A DNA stretch of 64,000 nucleotides from a virus (lineage: Duplodnaviria > Caudoviricetes), in IMG/VR virus record IMGVR_UViG_3300014205_000175, positions 1 through 64,000 of that record. One strand, 5' to 3'. Of this stretch, positions 8,992 to 16,204 are shown piece by piece (the stretch's first letter is position 1; every line of letters begins with the position of its first letter). Under the pieces are notes generated by a model. That model was not told the origin of the DNA and did no database searches. It saw only the letters and a program-made list of their open reading frames with translations. The position numbers and the translations under genes are program-made.

Positions 8992-10623
8992 ATGCAACAC
9001 TTAATGCGACAGCTAATAGAGCAAGACGCGCCGAAGATGAATCATGTCATGGTGCGCGGGCTAGCGGCTTATAAGGTCAGTCGCATCGAACAATACATCG
9101 ATAATGTGTTTCGTTCGGCGGCACGCAGTTTTCCGGCTGGACTGGAGTATGTGGATTCACAGCGCTGCAGTCCACTCGAAGAGTATAGCGAAGCCACTCG
9201 TGTGCGTAACAATCGTCGCACTGCTGATATAGCTCGTTCTGACATTTATCTGTGTAAATACCAACTGCGCTGGCAAGGTCGTAACTTGCCGGTGAAGTAT
9301 ATCTATCTGCCGTTTTTGCGCGAGTCCGGCGTGATGTGGTTGGGAGGGGCGTGTTATCACGTCTCGCCGGTATTAACCGATCGGGTCATCTCGGTCGGCT
9401 CAGATAGTATTTTCGTGCGGTTACTGCGAGATAAGCTCACCTTTCGTCGCTGCTATCATGGTTACATCGTAGATGGTCGGCGTGAGACGGTACATGTGAT
9501 CTGGTCGCAGATCTATCGTAATAGCTCATCGAAGAAGAAAGTTCTCCCTACGACACGCGCCAACACTACGGTGCTGCATTATCTTTTCGCCAAGTTGGGG
9601 TTTAATGCAGCGATGCGTTTGTTGCTGGGTTTCGACCCAGTGCTCTCTGAGACCCAGTTCGATCCGGAGGCTTACCCGAAAAAGGACTGGGTGATTTGTT
9701 CCTCGAATCAGGTTAAACCCACGACATGTCTGGGAAACTTTTATAACCCCACCAACATCCAAATGGCTATTCCACGTAGCCGCTGGAACGCTACCGTGAA
9801 GAGTATCGTCGGTAGTGCTTTTTATCTATTCGATCACTTCCCATCACGCCTGACTCTTAACGCACTCGATAACACCAAGGTGTGGATGATTTTACTTGGC
9901 CACATCATTTTTAGTGGCAACTATACGGAGGGCAAGCTCTATGAGTCGATCAGCGAGCATTTTAATTCACTCGAAGAGTATGTCGATGAGGTGATCTTCC
10001 GTAAGCTCATGGAGTCAGGCTATCCGGTCAGTAACCTCTATGACCTCTTAGTGCTGATGGCGCAAAACTTCAACGACTGGATCGCCACCAACCAAGGTAA
10101 TCTCACCTCGGTATATGGTAAGGATCTGGAAGTCGAGTATTATGTCGCGTACGAGATCACTGCTGGGATATTTCGCTTTGTCTTTAACCTCAACAAACTT
10201 GCCGCACGGCGAGAACTGATGGAAAAAGACGTCGTCGACATGATGAAGCGCAACATCAAGACTCGGGCAGTGCATAAACTCACCTCAGGGAATCTTGCGA
10301 TCAGCGGTGTCAACTATTCGGGTGACAACATGTACCCGAAGGTCACCGCTATTCTAGCCGAGCAAGAAAGCCTGCCCGGACCCAAGCGCGGCAAGCATAA
10401 ACGTAAAGTCCCTGATGAGACCAAGCGCTTTCATACTTCGATGCTGGAGATCGGCTCGCTACTGTATTTGCCGAAGAATAAACCCAACTCGACTTCACGC
10501 ATGAACCCGTATACGAGCTTCGATCCTGAGCTCGGAACGATCGTGCCTAAGATGTATCAGGATCTCCTCAAGCGCACACAGTTGATGCTCGAAGGACACA
10601 TGCCAGAAGACCTGCCACGTTAA
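8992..10623 (+). CDS. rpoB: Non-virion RNA polymerase beta-like subunit (phiKZ gp123-like)
   Basis: YLPF...G.M.LGG..YHVSPVL.D, F..LLRDKLTF.R and terminal R.NPY. 543 aa, two genes after the capsid gene. Confidence 0.8.
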   Translation: MQHLMRQLIEQDAPKMNHVMVRGLAAYKVSRIEQYIDNVFRSAARSFPAGLEYVDSQRCSPLEEYSEATRVRNNRRTADIARSDIYLCKYQLRWQGRNLPVKYIYLPFLRESGVMWLGGACYHVSPVLTDRVISVGSDSIFVRLLRDKLTFRRCYHGYIVDGRRETVHVIWSQIYRNSSSKKKVLPTTRANTTVLHYLFAKLGFNAAMRLLLGFDPVLSETQFDPEAYPKKDWVICSSNQVKPTTCLGNFYNPTNIQMAIPRSRWNATVKSIVGSAFYLFDHFPSRLTLNALDNTKVWMILLGHIIFSGNYTEGKLYESISEHFNSLEEYVDEVIFRKLMESGYPVSNLYDLLVLMAQNFNDWIATNQGNLTSVYGKDLEVEYYVAYEITAGIFRFVFNLNKLAARRELMEKDVVDMMKRNIKTRAVHKLTSGNLAISGVNYSGDNMYPKVTAILAEQESLPGPKRGKHKRKVPDETKRFHTSMLEIGSLLYLPKNKPNSTSRMNPYTSFDPELGTIVPKMYQDLLKRTQLMLEGHMPEDLPR

Positions 10624-10891: not shown

Positions 10892-12688
10892 ATGGCCTTA
10901 CCTGTGCCTCATGACATCTTTATCTCACAGCCAATAGAGTTTGCTGCCGGTCAACCTCCAGTGATGCCTCCGATATCGGCACCGCCGGACCTGGTGAGTT
11001 GGCTACCGTATATCGTATCGAGGGTAGCCAACGAGGTGACTTCCAAAGCCGGGGCTAACCCGTCGAGAGTTTTTACCTATAATCTACTTAGTCTCAATGG
11101 CTGGAACAATCAGTATTTTACCGAAGCGGTAGAGTTGGCAGTATGGCTAATCAAAATAGAGCTCAATCGCCGCACCCACACTAACGTCGAGGCAGCGATT
11201 CCCGATAGTGCTGAGAAAGCTGTCACTCTCATGACGTCGAAATACGTCTTCGAGTTTCCCGAACTAAAAGCATACTCACAGCCACAGTTGATCGATATCG
11301 CAATGACCAACTACGGCGTATTAAACTCACTCAAACAGGAAATAGCTAATATGCAACGTTTTGCCGGTCAAGCTCCGATGGCAGCACAGCAGCCGATGTA
11401 CCTGCAGCAGCAGCAGCCGATGTACCCGCAGCAACAACCGATGTACCCGCAGCAACAGATGTATCCTCAGCAGATGCCATCACCGATGATGCAGCAACAA
11501 CCCATGTATCCGCAGCAGATGTACCCTCAGCAGCTGCAACAGCCGATGATGCCGGCGGGTTTGGGTGTTGCTCAGACTGGGCAAATATCTTCTTCGGGTG
11601 GTGCACCCTTGCAACAGCAGATGGCTCAGTCGAATCGCTACTCAACTGCTGCCACTAAAACCACACCGGTTATCATTGTAGAAAAGGAAAAGGAGAACCG
11701 TTCCATGACTACTATCACTAACGTTGTTGTGAAGCCGCTTCAAGAGGCAGAAACGATGGACCGTCAGCAACACACCTTGTATTTTGCCGGTAACAGCTAT
11801 CCGCTCGATCGCTTTGCTCGTACAGCGGACATGGAACGCCAAGTGCGCGATATGGCTGAAGTGGATGATGGTGAGACTACTTCAGTGTATCTCAATCCGA
11901 CGGCCATCATGACGACGACACTGGAGAACGTGGTTTTCGAATCGCGTTTCATTCAGCGTCAGCGTCAACATGCCGGCGAAGAAGTCGATGTGTTCCGCTG
12001 CCTGGCGATCAACGTCATTCCGTTCATCTGCCATGAGTCGTATCGCGACATCATCGAGACCATCGTCAACAAGACGAGCCTGGCTGAAATGGCGACAGAG
12101 TTCAAGACGATCAGTACCAGTCTTGCCAATACCCAGGAGGCGAACTATCGGCTAGAGATGGTTGACATCCTCGAATACCTTGACCGCGAGATGACGAAAC
12201 TCATTCTGCGGTTCTTGCGTACTGAGATGGCAGCCGATATCAACATCGATTCGATGTCGGCTGATGGTAAAGACCTGGGTGCTTACATCGCTGGCAACTT
12301 TAGCGAACACCACATCGCAGCGTTCAATCGCTTCGAGAAGGAGCTCAGTAAATCGCTTAATTTCATGTCGCGTGAAGACGAGCAGTCGCTGCGGGAGACG
12401 ATTGTTGATGACAGTGGGTTGGAAGTGACGCTGGTAGCATCGTCGGTGTCGGTAACGGTCATCGATATGTATAATCGTGAGCTGGGCATCAATCTCAAAG
12501 ACGGTGCTTACATCATCGACGCCAATCGCCATCGGCTGCTCTATGAACTTGCCAGCAGTCTTGATAGCAACAAAGGAGCGAAGAACTGGGTGTCGAACAC
12601 CGACTACCTCGTGACGCGTGACGACGTTCGTTACACGTTGCACAAGAGCTACGTCACCGACAACCAGTACTTGATCCGTAAGGCGTAA
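10892..12688 (+). CDS. Hypothetical protein with internal Q/P/M/Y low-complexity region
   Basis: 598 aa, AGGAG RBS, QQPMYP repeats between two globular-looking regions. Confidence 0.8.
   Translation: MALPVPHDIFISQPIEFAAGQPPVMPPISAPPDLVSWLPYIVSRVANEVTSKAGANPSRVFTYNLLSLNGWNNQYFTEAVELAVWLIKIELNRRTHTNVEAAIPDSAEKAVTLMTSKYVFEFPELKAYSQPQLIDIAMTNYGVLNSLKQEIANMQRFAGQAPMAAQQPMYLQQQQPMYPQQQPMYPQQQMYPQQMPSPMMQQQPMYPQQMYPQQLQQPMMPAGLGVAQTGQISSSGGAPLQQQMAQSNRYSTAATKTTPVIIVEKEKENRSMTTITNVVVKPLQEAETMDRQQHTLYFAGNSYPLDRFARTADMERQVRDMAEVDDGETTSVYLNPTAIMTTTLENVVFESRFIQRQRQHAGEEVDVFRCLAINVIPFICHESYRDIIETIVNKTSLAEMATEFKTISTSLANTQEANYRLEMVDILEYLDREMTKLILRFLRTEMAADINIDSMSADGKDLGAYIAGNFSEHHIAAFNRFEKELSKSLNFMSREDEQSLRETIVDDSGLEVTLVASSVSVTVIDMYNRELGINLKDGAYIIDANRHRLLYELASSLDSNKGAKNWVSNTDYLVTRDDVRYTLHKSYVTDNQYLIRKA
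11385..11550 (+). repeat. Imperfect tandem repeat encoding QQ(P)MYPQ
   Basis: cagcagccgatgtacccg-like units repeated about 7 times. Confidence 0.85.
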
Positions 12689-12753: not shown

Positions 12754-12990
12754 ATGAAAAAAGCTGTAATAGATCGTCCGGTAGATGCTGAGTATGTGTT
12801 TCATCAAATCATCAGCAGTCTGGTCAAAGATGGCGATATCATGACCTGTGATCTGGGTTATTGTAAGATCGATTTTCTGCCGGATGGATATCGCTTACTG
12901 CGCCGTAACGAAATGGGCCAGCTGGAGCTACAGCTACATACCCCTGATTTTCTCAATATCGTAGGAAGTGTATTGCTGCAGTGGTGGTAG
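12754..12990 (+). CDS. Hypothetical protein (78 aa)
   Basis: GGAGGA precedes ATG 12754. Confidence 0.65.
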   Translation: MKKAVIDRPVDAEYVFHQIISSLVKDGDIMTCDLGYCKIDFLPDGYRLLRRNEMGQLELQLHTPDFLNIVGSVLLQWW

Positions 12991-13023
12991 TACTCTCTTT
13001 TCTCTCATACAAGGATATATATC

Positions 13024-13569
13024 ATGATCGTCGATTTCACTGTTCACCTGCCGGAAACCGTTCAGTTGCTGAGTGATAATAAAGAGTTTACTTTTTACCC
13101 GACCGGCGAGCGTTTCTTCATCGGGTCTCAGCACGGCGGCGGCGATATATTCGGCATGCCCTATCGGTTTTACGTGCAGGACACACCGGAAGCGCGAAAG
13201 TTTTTGCAGGCTAACGGATTCACAGTCAGTGACAACGACCTAGGGAACTTTTTTAATCTGGGTCAATTTGCAATGTTTCCGCAGCCGTCGATGTATCCAC
13301 GACAGATGCAGCAACCGATGCACTCTAGTGGAGTGGCTGCTAAGGATAGTGAAACCGTGCGTGATGTCGTTTATTCTAAATGCACCCCGTCCAATCCTGC
13401 CCCGGTGTACGTGTGGCTGGTAGAATCTGTAGAAATGTTGCGTGAAGCTCACGAGTACCTTAACCGGACACGCATAAATGGGACGTTCATGGCGCCCAAC
13501 ACCTATCGTCAGATGCTCGAACTCATTTTGACCGTGTCTCAGCTAGACTCGACATCGCGTTGGGTCTAG
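13024..13569 (+). CDS. Degenerate nucleotidyltransferase-like protein, paralogue 1
   Basis: FYPTGERFF...PYRFYVQDTPEARKFLQANGF...VY....VYVWLV shared with three neighbouring ORFs. Confidence 0.6.
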   Translation: MIVDFTVHLPETVQLLSDNKEFTFYPTGERFFIGSQHGGGDIFGMPYRFYVQDTPEARKFLQANGFTVSDNDLGNFFNLGQFAMFPQPSMYPRQMQQPMHSSGVAAKDSETVRDVVYSKCTPSNPAPVYVWLVESVEMLREAHEYLNRTRINGTFMAPNTYRQMLELILTVSQLDSTSRWV

Positions 13570-13604
13570 CTTGTGTACAATTTTCTTTTACACGGAGGTC
13601 TCTC

Positions 13605-14060
13605 ATGATCCATAATCTCTCAGCGCACGACACCGTCCAACTGCCGGCAGCAGTCACGCTACTAGCCAATCAGGCGGAGATGGATTTTTATCTCACCGGC
13701 ACGCGTTATTTCGCTGGTCATCGCATCTCTCGACCGCCCCAATCGATTCGCTACGAGTTCTTCGCCACGGATACTCCGGCAGTGCGCGCGTTTCTCGTAG
13801 CGAACGGGTTTTCTCAGGTTACGCATCGCTACTCGCATCTGACGAAAATCCCGCCTGATGTGGTTTATCGCTGTGAAGGCAACGAAGTCGCTACGCGCGG
13901 CTGCACGGTGTTCACGGATGTATGGCTAGTCGATTCGGTCGAGGCTATGGTAGCGGCGCACGAATACGTCTACGAAGCTTTCCCTGGTGGGCTGCCTGGT
14001 GACTACTGGTACATGTCGGTGAAAGCTGCCCTCATCGTCCTTGAAAATGAAAAAGAGTAG
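13605..14060 (+). CDS. Degenerate nucleotidyltransferase-like protein, paralogue 2
   Basis: GGAGG RBS. FYLTGTRYF...RYEFFATDTPAVRAFLVANGF...VYR...TDVWLV. Confidence 0.6.
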   Translation: MIHNLSAHDTVQLPAAVTLLANQAEMDFYLTGTRYFAGHRISRPPQSIRYEFFATDTPAVRAFLVANGFSQVTHRYSHLTKIPPDVVYRCEGNEVATRGCTVFTDVWLVDSVEAMVAAHEYVYEAFPGGLPGDYWYMSVKAALIVLENEKE

Positions 14061-14106
14061 AAAAGAAAGCATCGTCCAAATTTAGACTACTACTTTGGAG
14101 CAGAAC

Positions 14107-14442
14107 ATGATCCACGATCTCAAGACCGATGCCAGTGCCTCACTGGTAGAGACCATCGTTATGATGGCTACTACGCCGTTTTTTAACTTCTATCCAACGG
14201 GTAAGCGTTTTTTCATGGGTGATAAACGCATCACCCCGCTAGCTGCATCTGAGCCGTATGGATTTTATACTCGGGACATGCCGGAGACGCGTGAGTTTCT
14301 TACCTCGATAGGGTTCTCGCTCGACACGACCGACGAGCCCATAAAGCGTGTACGCGGGTTTAGCTCGATCTATCGAAAAGCCTGCCGCGATTTTCCTTCT
14401 TGCATCGAGGTGCAGCTCGTGGCACTGCACGACAGTAAATGA
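14107..14442 (+). CDS. Degenerate nucleotidyltransferase-like protein, paralogue 3 (short)
   Basis: FYPTGKRFF...PYGFYTRDMPETREFLTSIGF...IYRK...IEVQLV. Lacks the C-terminal helices of the other copies. Confidence 0.6.
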   Translation: MIHDLKTDASASLVETIVMMATTPFFNFYPTGKRFFMGDKRITPLAASEPYGFYTRDMPETREFLTSIGFSLDTTDEPIKRVRGFSSIYRKACRDFPSCIEVQLVALHDSK

Positions 14443-14801
14443 CCAGCGAGCATAAGCTGATTGTCGCCGGAGGTCGGGACTTCGAAGACTACGCGCTACT
14501 CACGGAGAAGATCTTCAAGTACGTTAACACCGAACTCAACAATCAGACGCTAGCGATCGTGAGCGGCATGGCCAGAGGCGCTGATAGCTTGGCAGTGCGT
14601 TTCGCTCGTGAGCAGCGCGTTCGACTCTACGAGTATCCGGCTGACTGGAATCTCGGGCGCGGCGCTGGGTTCATTCGTAACAAAGCCATGGGAGATTTTG
14701 CCGATGGACTATTAGCGTTTTGGTCCGGTAGTAACGGCACGCGCAACATGATTGAATACATGTTGAAACTCAACAAGCCAGTACGCATAGTGCGATACTA
14801 G
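14439..14801 (+). CDS. SLOG-superfamily YspA/DUF2493-like protein
   Basis: IVAGGRDF.DY, IVSGMARGAD, YPADW..G..AG..RN..M, S.GT..M. Confidence 0.85.
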   Translation: MTSEHKLIVAGGRDFEDYALLTEKIFKYVNTELNNQTLAIVSGMARGADSLAVRFAREQRVRLYEYPADWNLGRGAGFIRNKAMGDFADGLLAFWSGSNGTRNMIEYMLKLNKPVRIVRY

Positions 14802-14822
14802 GAATCGTTCTCGGAGCCGTGA

Positions 14823-15182
14823 ATGAAGGAATACAAACTGATCATAACGGGCGATCGTAACTTCACGAACTACTCGTTACTGAGTCAGAAGATCTTCGAT
14901 TACATTAATAACGATGCTTGTGGTTATGCTGTTAGTATCGTTAGCGGTATGGCTAAAGGTGCTGATCTATTAGCGGCGCGTTTTGCCCGCCAGTATCGGG
15001 TTCATCTGTACGAGTTTCCTACCGATTGGAGTCAAGGTCCTGGAGCGGGGTATGCTCGTAATCGAACTATGGCGGATTTTGCTGATGCTGCATTAGTGTT
15101 CGGTTCCCGTGATAATGCTACCCGGCATCTGATCGAATATATGGAAAGTCTCGGTAAATCCGTAAGCGTGGTGCGTTACTAA
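14823..15182 (+). CDS. SLOG-superfamily YspA/DUF2493-like protein, tandem paralogue
   Basis: IITGDRNF.NY, IVSGMAKGAD, FPTDW..G..AG..RN..M. Confidence 0.85.
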   Translation: MKEYKLIITGDRNFTNYSLLSQKIFDYINNDACGYAVSIVSGMAKGADLLAARFARQYRVHLYEFPTDWSQGPGAGYARNRTMADFADAALVFGSRDNATRHLIEYMESLGKSVSVVRY

Positions 15183-15200
15183 CTAACCAAGGAGCATGCA

Positions 15201-15389
15201 GTGTACCGTGTAGACATTTACATCGACAGCAGGGGCAAAGCCCGTCGCGTCAAAAACGTCGCTAACAATATTCCGACGTTCGAAGAAGCCGACCGGCTGT
15301 GCTCGCAGAAAAATCGCGATCTCGGTATCGACCCTGATAAGATGAAAGTGCGACCGGGGCAGAAGTACTGCATGTTCGACAGCCGTTAA
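15201..15389 (+). CDS. Small hypothetical protein
   Basis: AAGGAG precedes the GTG start. In line with the operon. Confidence 0.6.
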   Translation: MYRVDIYIDSRGKARRVKNVANNIPTFEEADRLCSQKNRDLGIDPDKMKVRPGQKYCMFDSR

Positions 15390-15410
15390 TCACTTCAAGA
15401 AAGGGTTGTC

Positions 15411-15602
15411 ATGACGCCGTTGCAACAAGAGGTAGTGAATCGTGCTCGCGAGCGACTTAAAGATAAAACGTGGTTTCGCGGGCTGTGTCTCGATGGTTTG
15501 TGGGAAGATGAGGACATCCAGCGCGACGGAGTAGAAGCAGCGGCTACCGCACTAGCGATGGAAACCGCGATGTGGGACGCTCCCGATTTCTTTAACCCCT
15601 AA
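15411..15602 (+). CDS. Small hypothetical protein
   Basis: AAGGG RBS. Followed by a hairpin at 15625-15651. Confidence 0.6.
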   Translation: MTPLQQEVVNRARERLKDKTWFRGLCLDGLWEDEDIQRDGVEAAATALAMETAMWDAPDFFNP

Positions 15603-15679
15603 GCGTTCGAGTTAAATTCAGATCCCGTCCTTCCTACCCACGGAAGGGCGGTCATTACTCAATGGGAGATTTATTTGTT

Positions 15680-16144
15680 ATGATACCTCATTTCGACAAC
15701 TACCACCACATGCGTTTTCCAGTTAACGTCCGGCCTCTCATAGATACTCAGGCATTCGAGTTTCATCTCACCGGAGAGAGGTTCTTGGTCTATAAGGCTA
15801 AATGGGCGCTGGGGACTGACTACCAGTTTTTCACCGAGTGTAATCCTGAAGTTATCAAGTTTCTCAAGGCACAAGGGTTCGTGAAGATTAAAACTACCTG
15901 TCGGCGCGATCCGTTGTTGCTAAAAGTCTATCGTAAGTCATGCCACGATCTATTTTTTTATGGGTATGTGCCGTACGTCGAAGTACAGCTTGTGAAGATG
16001 CCCGAGCTAAAACTAAAAACACAACATAACCTACGACTCATCTATCCTCGCGGGTTGCCTAAAGACATCGATACACAGTATGAAATTTGGCATCTAGCCA
16101 CCCAGCTCACTGCTCTGAGTAGCCTGAATGCCGTGGTTAGTTAA
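15680..16144 (+). CDS. Degenerate nucleotidyltransferase-like protein, paralogue 4
   Basis: FHLTGERF...TDYQFFTECNPEVIKFLKAQGF...VYRK...VEVQLV. Likely start MIPHF. Confidence 0.6.
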   Translation: MIPHFDNYHHMRFPVNVRPLIDTQAFEFHLTGERFLVYKAKWALGTDYQFFTECNPEVIKFLKAQGFVKIKTTCRRDPLLLKVYRKSCHDLFFYGYVPYVEVQLVKMPELKLKTQHNLRLIYPRGLPKDIDTQYEIWHLATQLTALSSLNAVVS

Positions 16145-16148
16145 AGTC

Positions 16149-16200
16149 ACACCTTCCCGTCCTTCCCAACTGCGGGAGGACGGGAAGGTGTTTTTTTTTT
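16149..16200 (+). terminator. Terminator between convergent operons
   Basis: ACACCTTCCCGTCCTTCC-loop-GGGAGGACGGGAAGGTGT followed by a long T-run. Confidence 0.85.
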
Positions 16201-16204
16201 GCTT

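Follow-up and report, generated by a model that had tools for sequence, protein, structure and literature searches.

Four probable pseudo-nucleotidyltransferases in an accessory insertion of an uncultured phage

The window analyzed here is a stretch of 64,000 nucleotides from the start of a 202.8-kb virus genome record (IMG/VR record IMGVR_UViG_3300014205_000175). Within an accessory insertion it carries four open reading frames (ORFs) that encode divergent copies of a small nucleotidyltransferase (NTase) of the Pol-beta superfamily. None of these copies retains the active site found in its relatives, and all four are very probably pseudo-enzymes. The ORFs start at 13024, 13605, 14107, and 15680 and are termed P0003, P0002, P0004, and P0001 in that order. 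They share the insertion with two genes of the SLOG type, SLOG1 and SLOG2. Judged by its sequence, the window phage is classed as an uncultured phiKZ-like jumbo phage, because a 543-amino-acid (aa) gene at 8992 has 30–40% identity to beta-type subunits of the RNA polymerases of such phages. The sequencing runs that contain the phage are landfill and groundwater metagenomes, with no RNA run among those listed.

Each of the four ORFs starts with MI, as reported in an earlier note made from the sequence alone, and each has a Shine-Dalgarno-like site. The mutual homology claimed in that note is borne out by BLASTP (pairwise E 1e-8 to 1e-15) and by phmmer, which finds only these four to be related among all ORFs of the genome. 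Identity between the copies is only 26–39%, and there is no similarity at the DNA level. A profile built exclusively from live relatives, in which the site is intact, matches all four copies (E 3e-24 to 1e-12, with P0003 at 8e-13), and a separate scan with a live-member profile recovers them at E 2e-27 to 6e-14. A live-member profile search finds no live family copy in the genome record of the window phage. Direct searches of the four copies against Pfam, PHROG, PDB sequences, and Atlas features give no match, and a word-index search with the four-copy alignment returns only the copies themselves.

The family behind these copies is large. An exhaustive HMMER scan with the four-copy alignment yields 313 relatives, and a profile of live members reaches at least 823 clusters, mostly of 125–160 aa. 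The family consensus reads LTGSRFFG..SDWDFF..DVQL, and starting with MI is typical of its members (MIxN consensus). Among the relatives found with the dead-copy profile, the G-S pair is present in 142 of 144 and both aspartates of the D-x-D motif in 143 of 144, while the third acidic position is occupied by D in 94, H in 29, Q in 17, and E in 3. As read from this alignment, the family site consists of G-S...S-D-x-D and a variable third residue. Members are found on phage contigs of 17 kb to 690 kb, including those of other phiKZ-like phages. When dead and live members were searched against cultured phages by tblastn at E 0.01–1, no family member was found, and one match at E 0.04 was disregarded. 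Pfam NTP_transf_2 matches 14 of 148 members weakly, and the Atlas clusters that match the family carry the name nucleotidyltransferase. The family thus belongs to the Pol-beta nucleotidyltransferase superfamily and is uncatalogued in curated libraries. A weak match in G056 (L205) proved not to be a family member.

Pol-beta enzymes bind the triphosphate and the metals through the serines of the phosphate loop and before the DxD motif, together with the acids. In the window copies, the phosphate-loop serine is lost from four of four, the first aspartate is kept in one, the second is lost from all (replaced by E in one), and the serine preceding DxD is absent throughout. The motif states listed in the earlier note hold residue by residue (Table 1), and so does its statement that none of the copies has a complete triad; its third acid is not a fixed feature of the family, since live relatives carry D, H, Q, or E there. 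Overall, the copies retain only 1 of 12 catalytic positions, compared to 58 of the 78 conserved positions outside the site (Fisher p 2e-5, a descriptive value only, as the site was chosen for its loss). No copy has both a G-[GS] loop and the two metal-binding acids that mark an active enzyme. The loss of these serines and acids makes canonical catalysis and nucleoside triphosphate (NTP) binding both unlikely. Elsewhere in the domain, P0001 retains R34, D77, Q103, K111, Q115, and W137, while the pocket residues Q, K, and Q are replaced by W, L, and H in P0003 and by W, M, and H in P0002. These retained or replaced polar residues would line the cleft.

It might be argued that the active sites have been rebuilt and that some copies are still enzymes with another chemistry. 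Two acids do remain in two of the copies (D47 and E101 in P0001; E51 and D105 in P0002), and the E-V-Q-L strand with E101 presumably resembles the E-I-Q strand of RelA/SpoT synthetases. In addition, the best PDB rows for P0001 in Foldseek are small alarmone synthetases, although these matches are weak (E 6e-3 or worse, template-modeling (TM) score 0.3, root-mean-square deviation (rmsd) ~10), poor in shape, and outranked by GrpB and CCA folds in the full alignment. However, the residues lost differ from copy to copy with no new shared motif, and P0003 is left without any acid. Residual enzyme activity of this kind is therefore improbable.

The predicted structures agree with a retained domain. 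AlphaFold models of P0001 and P0002 have predicted local distance difference test (pLDDT) values of 87.7 and 84.2, and in structural searches with these models nearly all of the listed matches are Pol-beta NTase folds at Z 5–7, which fits the fold proposed in the earlier note; for P0003 and P0004 the fold is assigned by profile homology only. P0001 matches GrpB (2nrk; Z 6.4, rmsd 4.7, 129 aligned residues) and CoaE-GrpB (Z 7.0), and further matches include tRNA enzymes (Z 5.9–6.0) and MenT1 (Z 5.8). An Atlas shape search returns GrpB, DUF4269, and AbiEii. The models thus indicate that the Pol-beta fold is kept in these two copies.

The nearest known groups of this superfamily each differ from the window proteins or their family. 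GrpB and DUF4269-like proteins (2nrk; 6n39; PF04229, PF14091) give the best whole-domain match for P0001 (Z 6.4–7.0 over 129–139 residues, Atlas TM 0.53–0.60), and in both an NTase core is followed by capping helices. However, identity is only 8–11%, GrpB is a cellular family of unassigned function, and the window proteins have neither a Pfam assignment nor a catalytic site. The G-S-R...S-D-W-D-F motif of the live family corresponds to the motif of the MNT antitoxins (E 0.088 over 25 residues), of the MNT/MenT/AbiEii group (7ae2, 8an4). Unlike that group, the family is phage-borne, lacks a HEPN or MenA partner near 100 family loci and in the insertion, matches nothing in NCBIfam and PADLOC only faintly, and the window copies are dead. 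The sister families PHROG 15166 and PHROG 388 are of similar size and each matches 2 of 148 members (E ~1e-4 to 1e-5), while the window proteins match neither. Jumbo phages also encode RlaP and CCA-adding NTases, which serve in RNA repair (PMC7824862). These share the Pol-beta fold and a phage origin with the family, and tRNA-processing enzymes are among the top fold matches, whereas the RlaP Pfam profile matches 0 of 148 members, an RNA ligase is not a recurrent neighbor, and the family proteins are half the size of CCA enzymes. No relevant literature on inactive or decoy phage NTases turned up.

Some loci of live members have neighbors that deserve mention. In one small-phage clade (L002, L003, L010, L011, L019), a P-loop kinase-like gene lies no more than 3 kb from the live NTase, and in L007, L045, L054, and L116 a metallophosphoesterase is found near it. 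Such neighbors could hint at RNA-end repair; the loci are mutually related. On a phiKZ-like contig (L112:3138-10414), a live family member lies 6 kb from a gene with a match to Acb3 (PF25187).

The four window copies appear to have had two sources. P0002 and P0003 are sisters (tree support 97/80), and in a profile ranking P0004 is the next match of this pair. The copies at 13024, 13605, and 14107 are read as products of local duplication. P0001 is probably a separate acquisition, because it ranks 24th and is bracketed by two related hairpins. Trees have little resolution at depth: a single clade of all four is compatible with the approximately unbiased test (p-AU 0.81), yet it appears in 0 of 200 bootstrap trees, so that one origin is neither rejected nor demonstrated. 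Amplification and divergence of accessory genes is a habit of this phage, because its genome holds other tandem accessory arrays outside the window, of four 188-aa genes (66919-69358) and of five paralogues of ~400 aa (106696-113424), and because SLOG2 itself arose by local duplication and lacks residues that are otherwise invariant. The 188-aa array occupies the position of the live NTase in the closest relative of the window phage, G019.

Dead copies of the family are also found in four further phage lineages (L004, L050, P0028, and G019); such counts are lower bounds among the gathered loci, which were collected with a pattern that requires G-S-R. A 144-kb phage (L004:1651-6485; IMGVR_UViG_3300033149_003715) carries seven family copies within 5 kb, six live and one dead, which sit among other tandem paralogue sets. 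At L050:5512-6366, a live copy is adjacent to a dead one with the motif states GG/EWE/Y. G019 has one live copy (P0179) and one dead copy, both at sites other than the window insertion, and the dead copy (L106:1414-1938) has a full-length syntenic orthologue in a second phage (L123:2132-2653) at 79% identity. For this pair, the ratio of nonsynonymous to synonymous substitution rates (dN/dS) is 0.49 (95% interval 0.28–0.86, p 0.008), so constraint on the G019 dead copy is relaxed but present. Because this copy is not orthologous to those of the window, the losses are independent. It had been considered an orthologue of P0002 and P0003 on the basis of a shared Q-to-H change; a profile test ranks it last of 233. 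The G019-type dead copy has a long Q/P/S-rich insertion in its phosphate loop.

The window copies are likely kept by selection as a folded scaffold. In a simulation of neutral decay, the probability that no stop codon arises is 0.04 before two of three site residues are lost and 0.004 before three of three are lost. Since a stop is hit first in 96% and 99.6% of these runs, respectively, decay is a poor explanation for three dead genes that are still full length. The contrary view is that they are drifting duplicates from a recent accessory amplification, under relaxed selection, open but functionless and headed for loss. The truncation of P0004, the erosion of SLOG2, the long terminal branches of the copies, the absence of the entire island from G019, and the dN/dS of the G019 dead pair, which is high for such a phage, all fit this view. 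It nevertheless seems unlikely: at 26–39% identity and without DNA similarity, three copies are still full length with ribosome-binding sites, a stop would be expected first, and core positions are retained where catalytic ones are gone.

A role as binders would account for the retained scaffold. The ancestor would have been a small (130–150 aa) phage Pol-beta nucleotidyltransferase of the uncatalogued family, whose copies now lie within an accessory insertion; the insertion occupies a variable genomic site in a phage prone to duplicating accessory genes. The live family may modify a host macromolecule, either an RNA end or a protein, with a nucleoside monophosphate during takeover. In the dead copies, the cleft that binds the substrate would be preserved or redirected, and the proteins would bind a target of that kind stoichiometrically and block or shield it, as accessory host-interaction or counter-defence factors. 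That the dead copies bind the ancestral type of macromolecular target is given about an even chance.

Several points weigh against this reading. The Z values of 5–7 obtained with the models fix the superfamily, not function or substrate, and at 100 loci the genes next to live members are small, accessory, and variable, and no partner is conserved among them. P0004, with 111 aa and no C-terminal helices, may be a relic. For the window copies only identical sequences were found, with no diverged orthologue from which their own dN/dS could be obtained. The ratio from G019 is not theirs, as it belongs to a non-orthologous copy, and neighbors of that copy have a dN/dS of 0.05, which means that selection on it is ~10 times weaker. 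Finally, the genome record is linear and, at 202.8 kb compared to 205.4 kb, may lack 2–3 kb, so that a live copy could conceivably lie elsewhere in the genome.

In a variant of the binder reading, the dead copies would serve as immunity or poison subunits that bind and block live enzymes of the family, either those of their own phage as a form of regulation or those of competitors. It is true that in three of the five dead-copy lineages (L004, L050, and G019) the record includes a live copy as well, and that G019, with its live P0179, is a likely competitor for a similar host. However, all four copies found in the genome record of the window phage are dead, and the family gives no sign of oligomerization, so that this is a very remote prospect. 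A predicted complex between live P0179 and dead P0001 scored 0.28 compared to a mark of 0.32 and is not used as evidence.

The two SLOG genes, recognized as such in the earlier note, are members of the YAcAr family (PF10686), with 55.6 and 49 bits against a curated cut-off of 28.2. SLOG1 keeps every position that is invariant in 50 phage relatives and has no sequence match in the PDB. SLOG2, which is 56% identical to SLOG1 in aa and 67% in nucleotides, has lost otherwise invariant residues (A68T, G100A) and also carries S98D. YAcAr relatives (PF10686, PHROG 289) occur in 577 cultured-phage records. The window differs in its tandem duplicate, as two genes are found in 0 of 65 other loci, and in the lost invariant residues of the second copy. 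YAcAr domains in jumbo phages have been predicted to handle NAD/ADP-ribose signals (PMC7824862), and in phage DruSM1 deletion of a DprA/Smf-like gene lowers infectivity on AVAST III (10.1101/2024.04.14.589459). The SLOG genes may therefore be counter-defence genes in their own right.

The earlier note had joined the dead NTases and the SLOG proteins in one module of nucleotide sponges or decoys directed at cyclic-oligonucleotide-based anti-phage signaling systems (CBASS), Thoeris, or MenT/AbiE-type defences. The common transcription unit, in which the stop of P0004 overlaps the start of SLOG1 (ATGA), the K/Q/W pocket kept in P0001, and the YAcAr and DruSM1 reports just cited are consistent with that idea. 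So is a single locus among 65 SLOG loci, L229:2099-4351, where a live NTase of a sister family (phrog_15166) lies 19 bp upstream of a YAcAr SLOG gene, together with a NADAR-like gene and two small genes; this run may be an ADP-ribose-related cassette.

Co-occurrence, examined both ways, is essentially absent. There is no SLOG gene in 490 kb of flanks around 100 family loci, with the window serving as positive control. Of the 18 NTase-bearing records, two contain a YAcAr domain, at distances of 79 and 57 kb from the NTase. Among 50 phiKZ-like records, 17 have SLOG and one has the NTase, and in that one the two are 35 kb apart; the G019 record holds live and dead NTase copies and no SLOG gene. 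With NTase and SLOG genes present together in four genomes, a single adjacency amounts to a hint and does not make a module. Moreover, sponging of NTP is not supported, because the phosphate-binding serines and metal acids are the very residues lost: the changes from S to E, T, or K together with the loss of acids would abolish triphosphate binding, and in P0002 and P0003 the pocket Q and K have become W and M or L. For a phage nucleotide-signal sponge of the Tad1/Tad2/Acb2 kind, the lost triphosphate site likewise speaks against NTP ligands. Nor did any specific link to CBASS, Thoeris, or MenT emerge; the CD-NTases of CBASS match at Z ~4–5, tied with or below other Pol-beta proteins. The window copies are single domains of ~150 aa. 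A joint module is improbable, and the SLOG pair looks like an accessory gene that was acquired independently and duplicated and that shares a transcription unit with the dead copies. A broader proposal is that phages repeatedly convert a widespread, so far undescribed host-modifying NTase into dead binders, and that the four different clefts of the window, with one live and one eroded SLOG, act together as decoys or inhibitors that counter immunity based on nucleotides and would represent a new class of anti-defence pseudo-enzymes. This is speculative and rather unlikely.

With the SLOG link having failed, the feature is a promising lead but falls short of a new system. The family behind it is large, has a textbook NTase site, and is named by no curated library and carried by no cultured phage in the collection. 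In about five phage lineages this site was inactivated independently, with the fold retained. Live and dead pairs from one genome (G019, L004, L050) offer a direct route to the substrate and to the role of the dead copies.

As the earlier note had proposed, the genes form an accessory island, an insertion that is absent from G019, whose portal is 75% identical to that of the window phage (Table 1). Other phiKZ-like phages have unrelated inserts of 1–5 kb at this site. Three of the NTase copies precede the SLOG pair, and the fourth follows it, separated by two orphan ORFs. Contigs of a groundwater run of 2022, which belongs to a separate study, are identical to the island where they cover it, including the GE and DYQ codons of the copy at 15680, and these codons are therefore not assembly errors.

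Table 1. Features of the accessory insertion and its boundaries (positions in the window)
Feature	Position	Strand	Remark
78-aa gene, left boundary	12754..12990	+	G019 orthologue runs directly into terminator, then portal gene
Accessory insertion, ~3.2 kb, eight co-oriented genes	12991..16148	+	Absent from closest relative G019
P0003, dead NTase-fold copy, 181 aa, GE/PYR/Y, Q/P/M-rich insertion	13024..13569	+	
P0002, dead NTase-fold copy, 151 aa, GT/RYE/D, sister of P0003	13605..14060	+	
P0004, dead C-terminally truncated copy, 111 aa, GK/PYG/E	14107..14442	+	
SLOG1, SLOG/YAcAr protein, 120 aa	14439..14801	+	
SLOG2, SLOG/YAcAr protein, 119 aa, local duplicate of SLOG1	14823..15182	+	
Orphan ORF, 62 aa	15201..15389	+	No match in library searches
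Orphan ORF, 63 aa	15411..15602	+	No match in library searches
GC-rich hairpin without U-tail, leader of P0001	15623..15651	+	79% identical to downstream terminator
P0001, dead NTase-fold copy, 154 aa, GE/DYQ/E	15680..16144	+	
Strong intrinsic terminator, 18-bp stem, T-run, z -6.85	16149..16201	+	Between island and convergent portal gene

A frameshift fusion of P0004 with SLOG1 was considered and rejected, as the overlap has no slippery run and no remnant of the missing helices is found downstream. The hairpins that bracket P0001 (15623-15651 and 16155-16183) may mark the ends of a cassette or reflect duplication of the terminator. In P0003, the Q/P/M-rich insertion (13281-13320) is 85% identical over 40 nucleotides to genome positions 129213-129252. 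It also resembles a tract of low complexity in the gene at 10892, which encodes 598 aa, and was possibly captured from a core gene.

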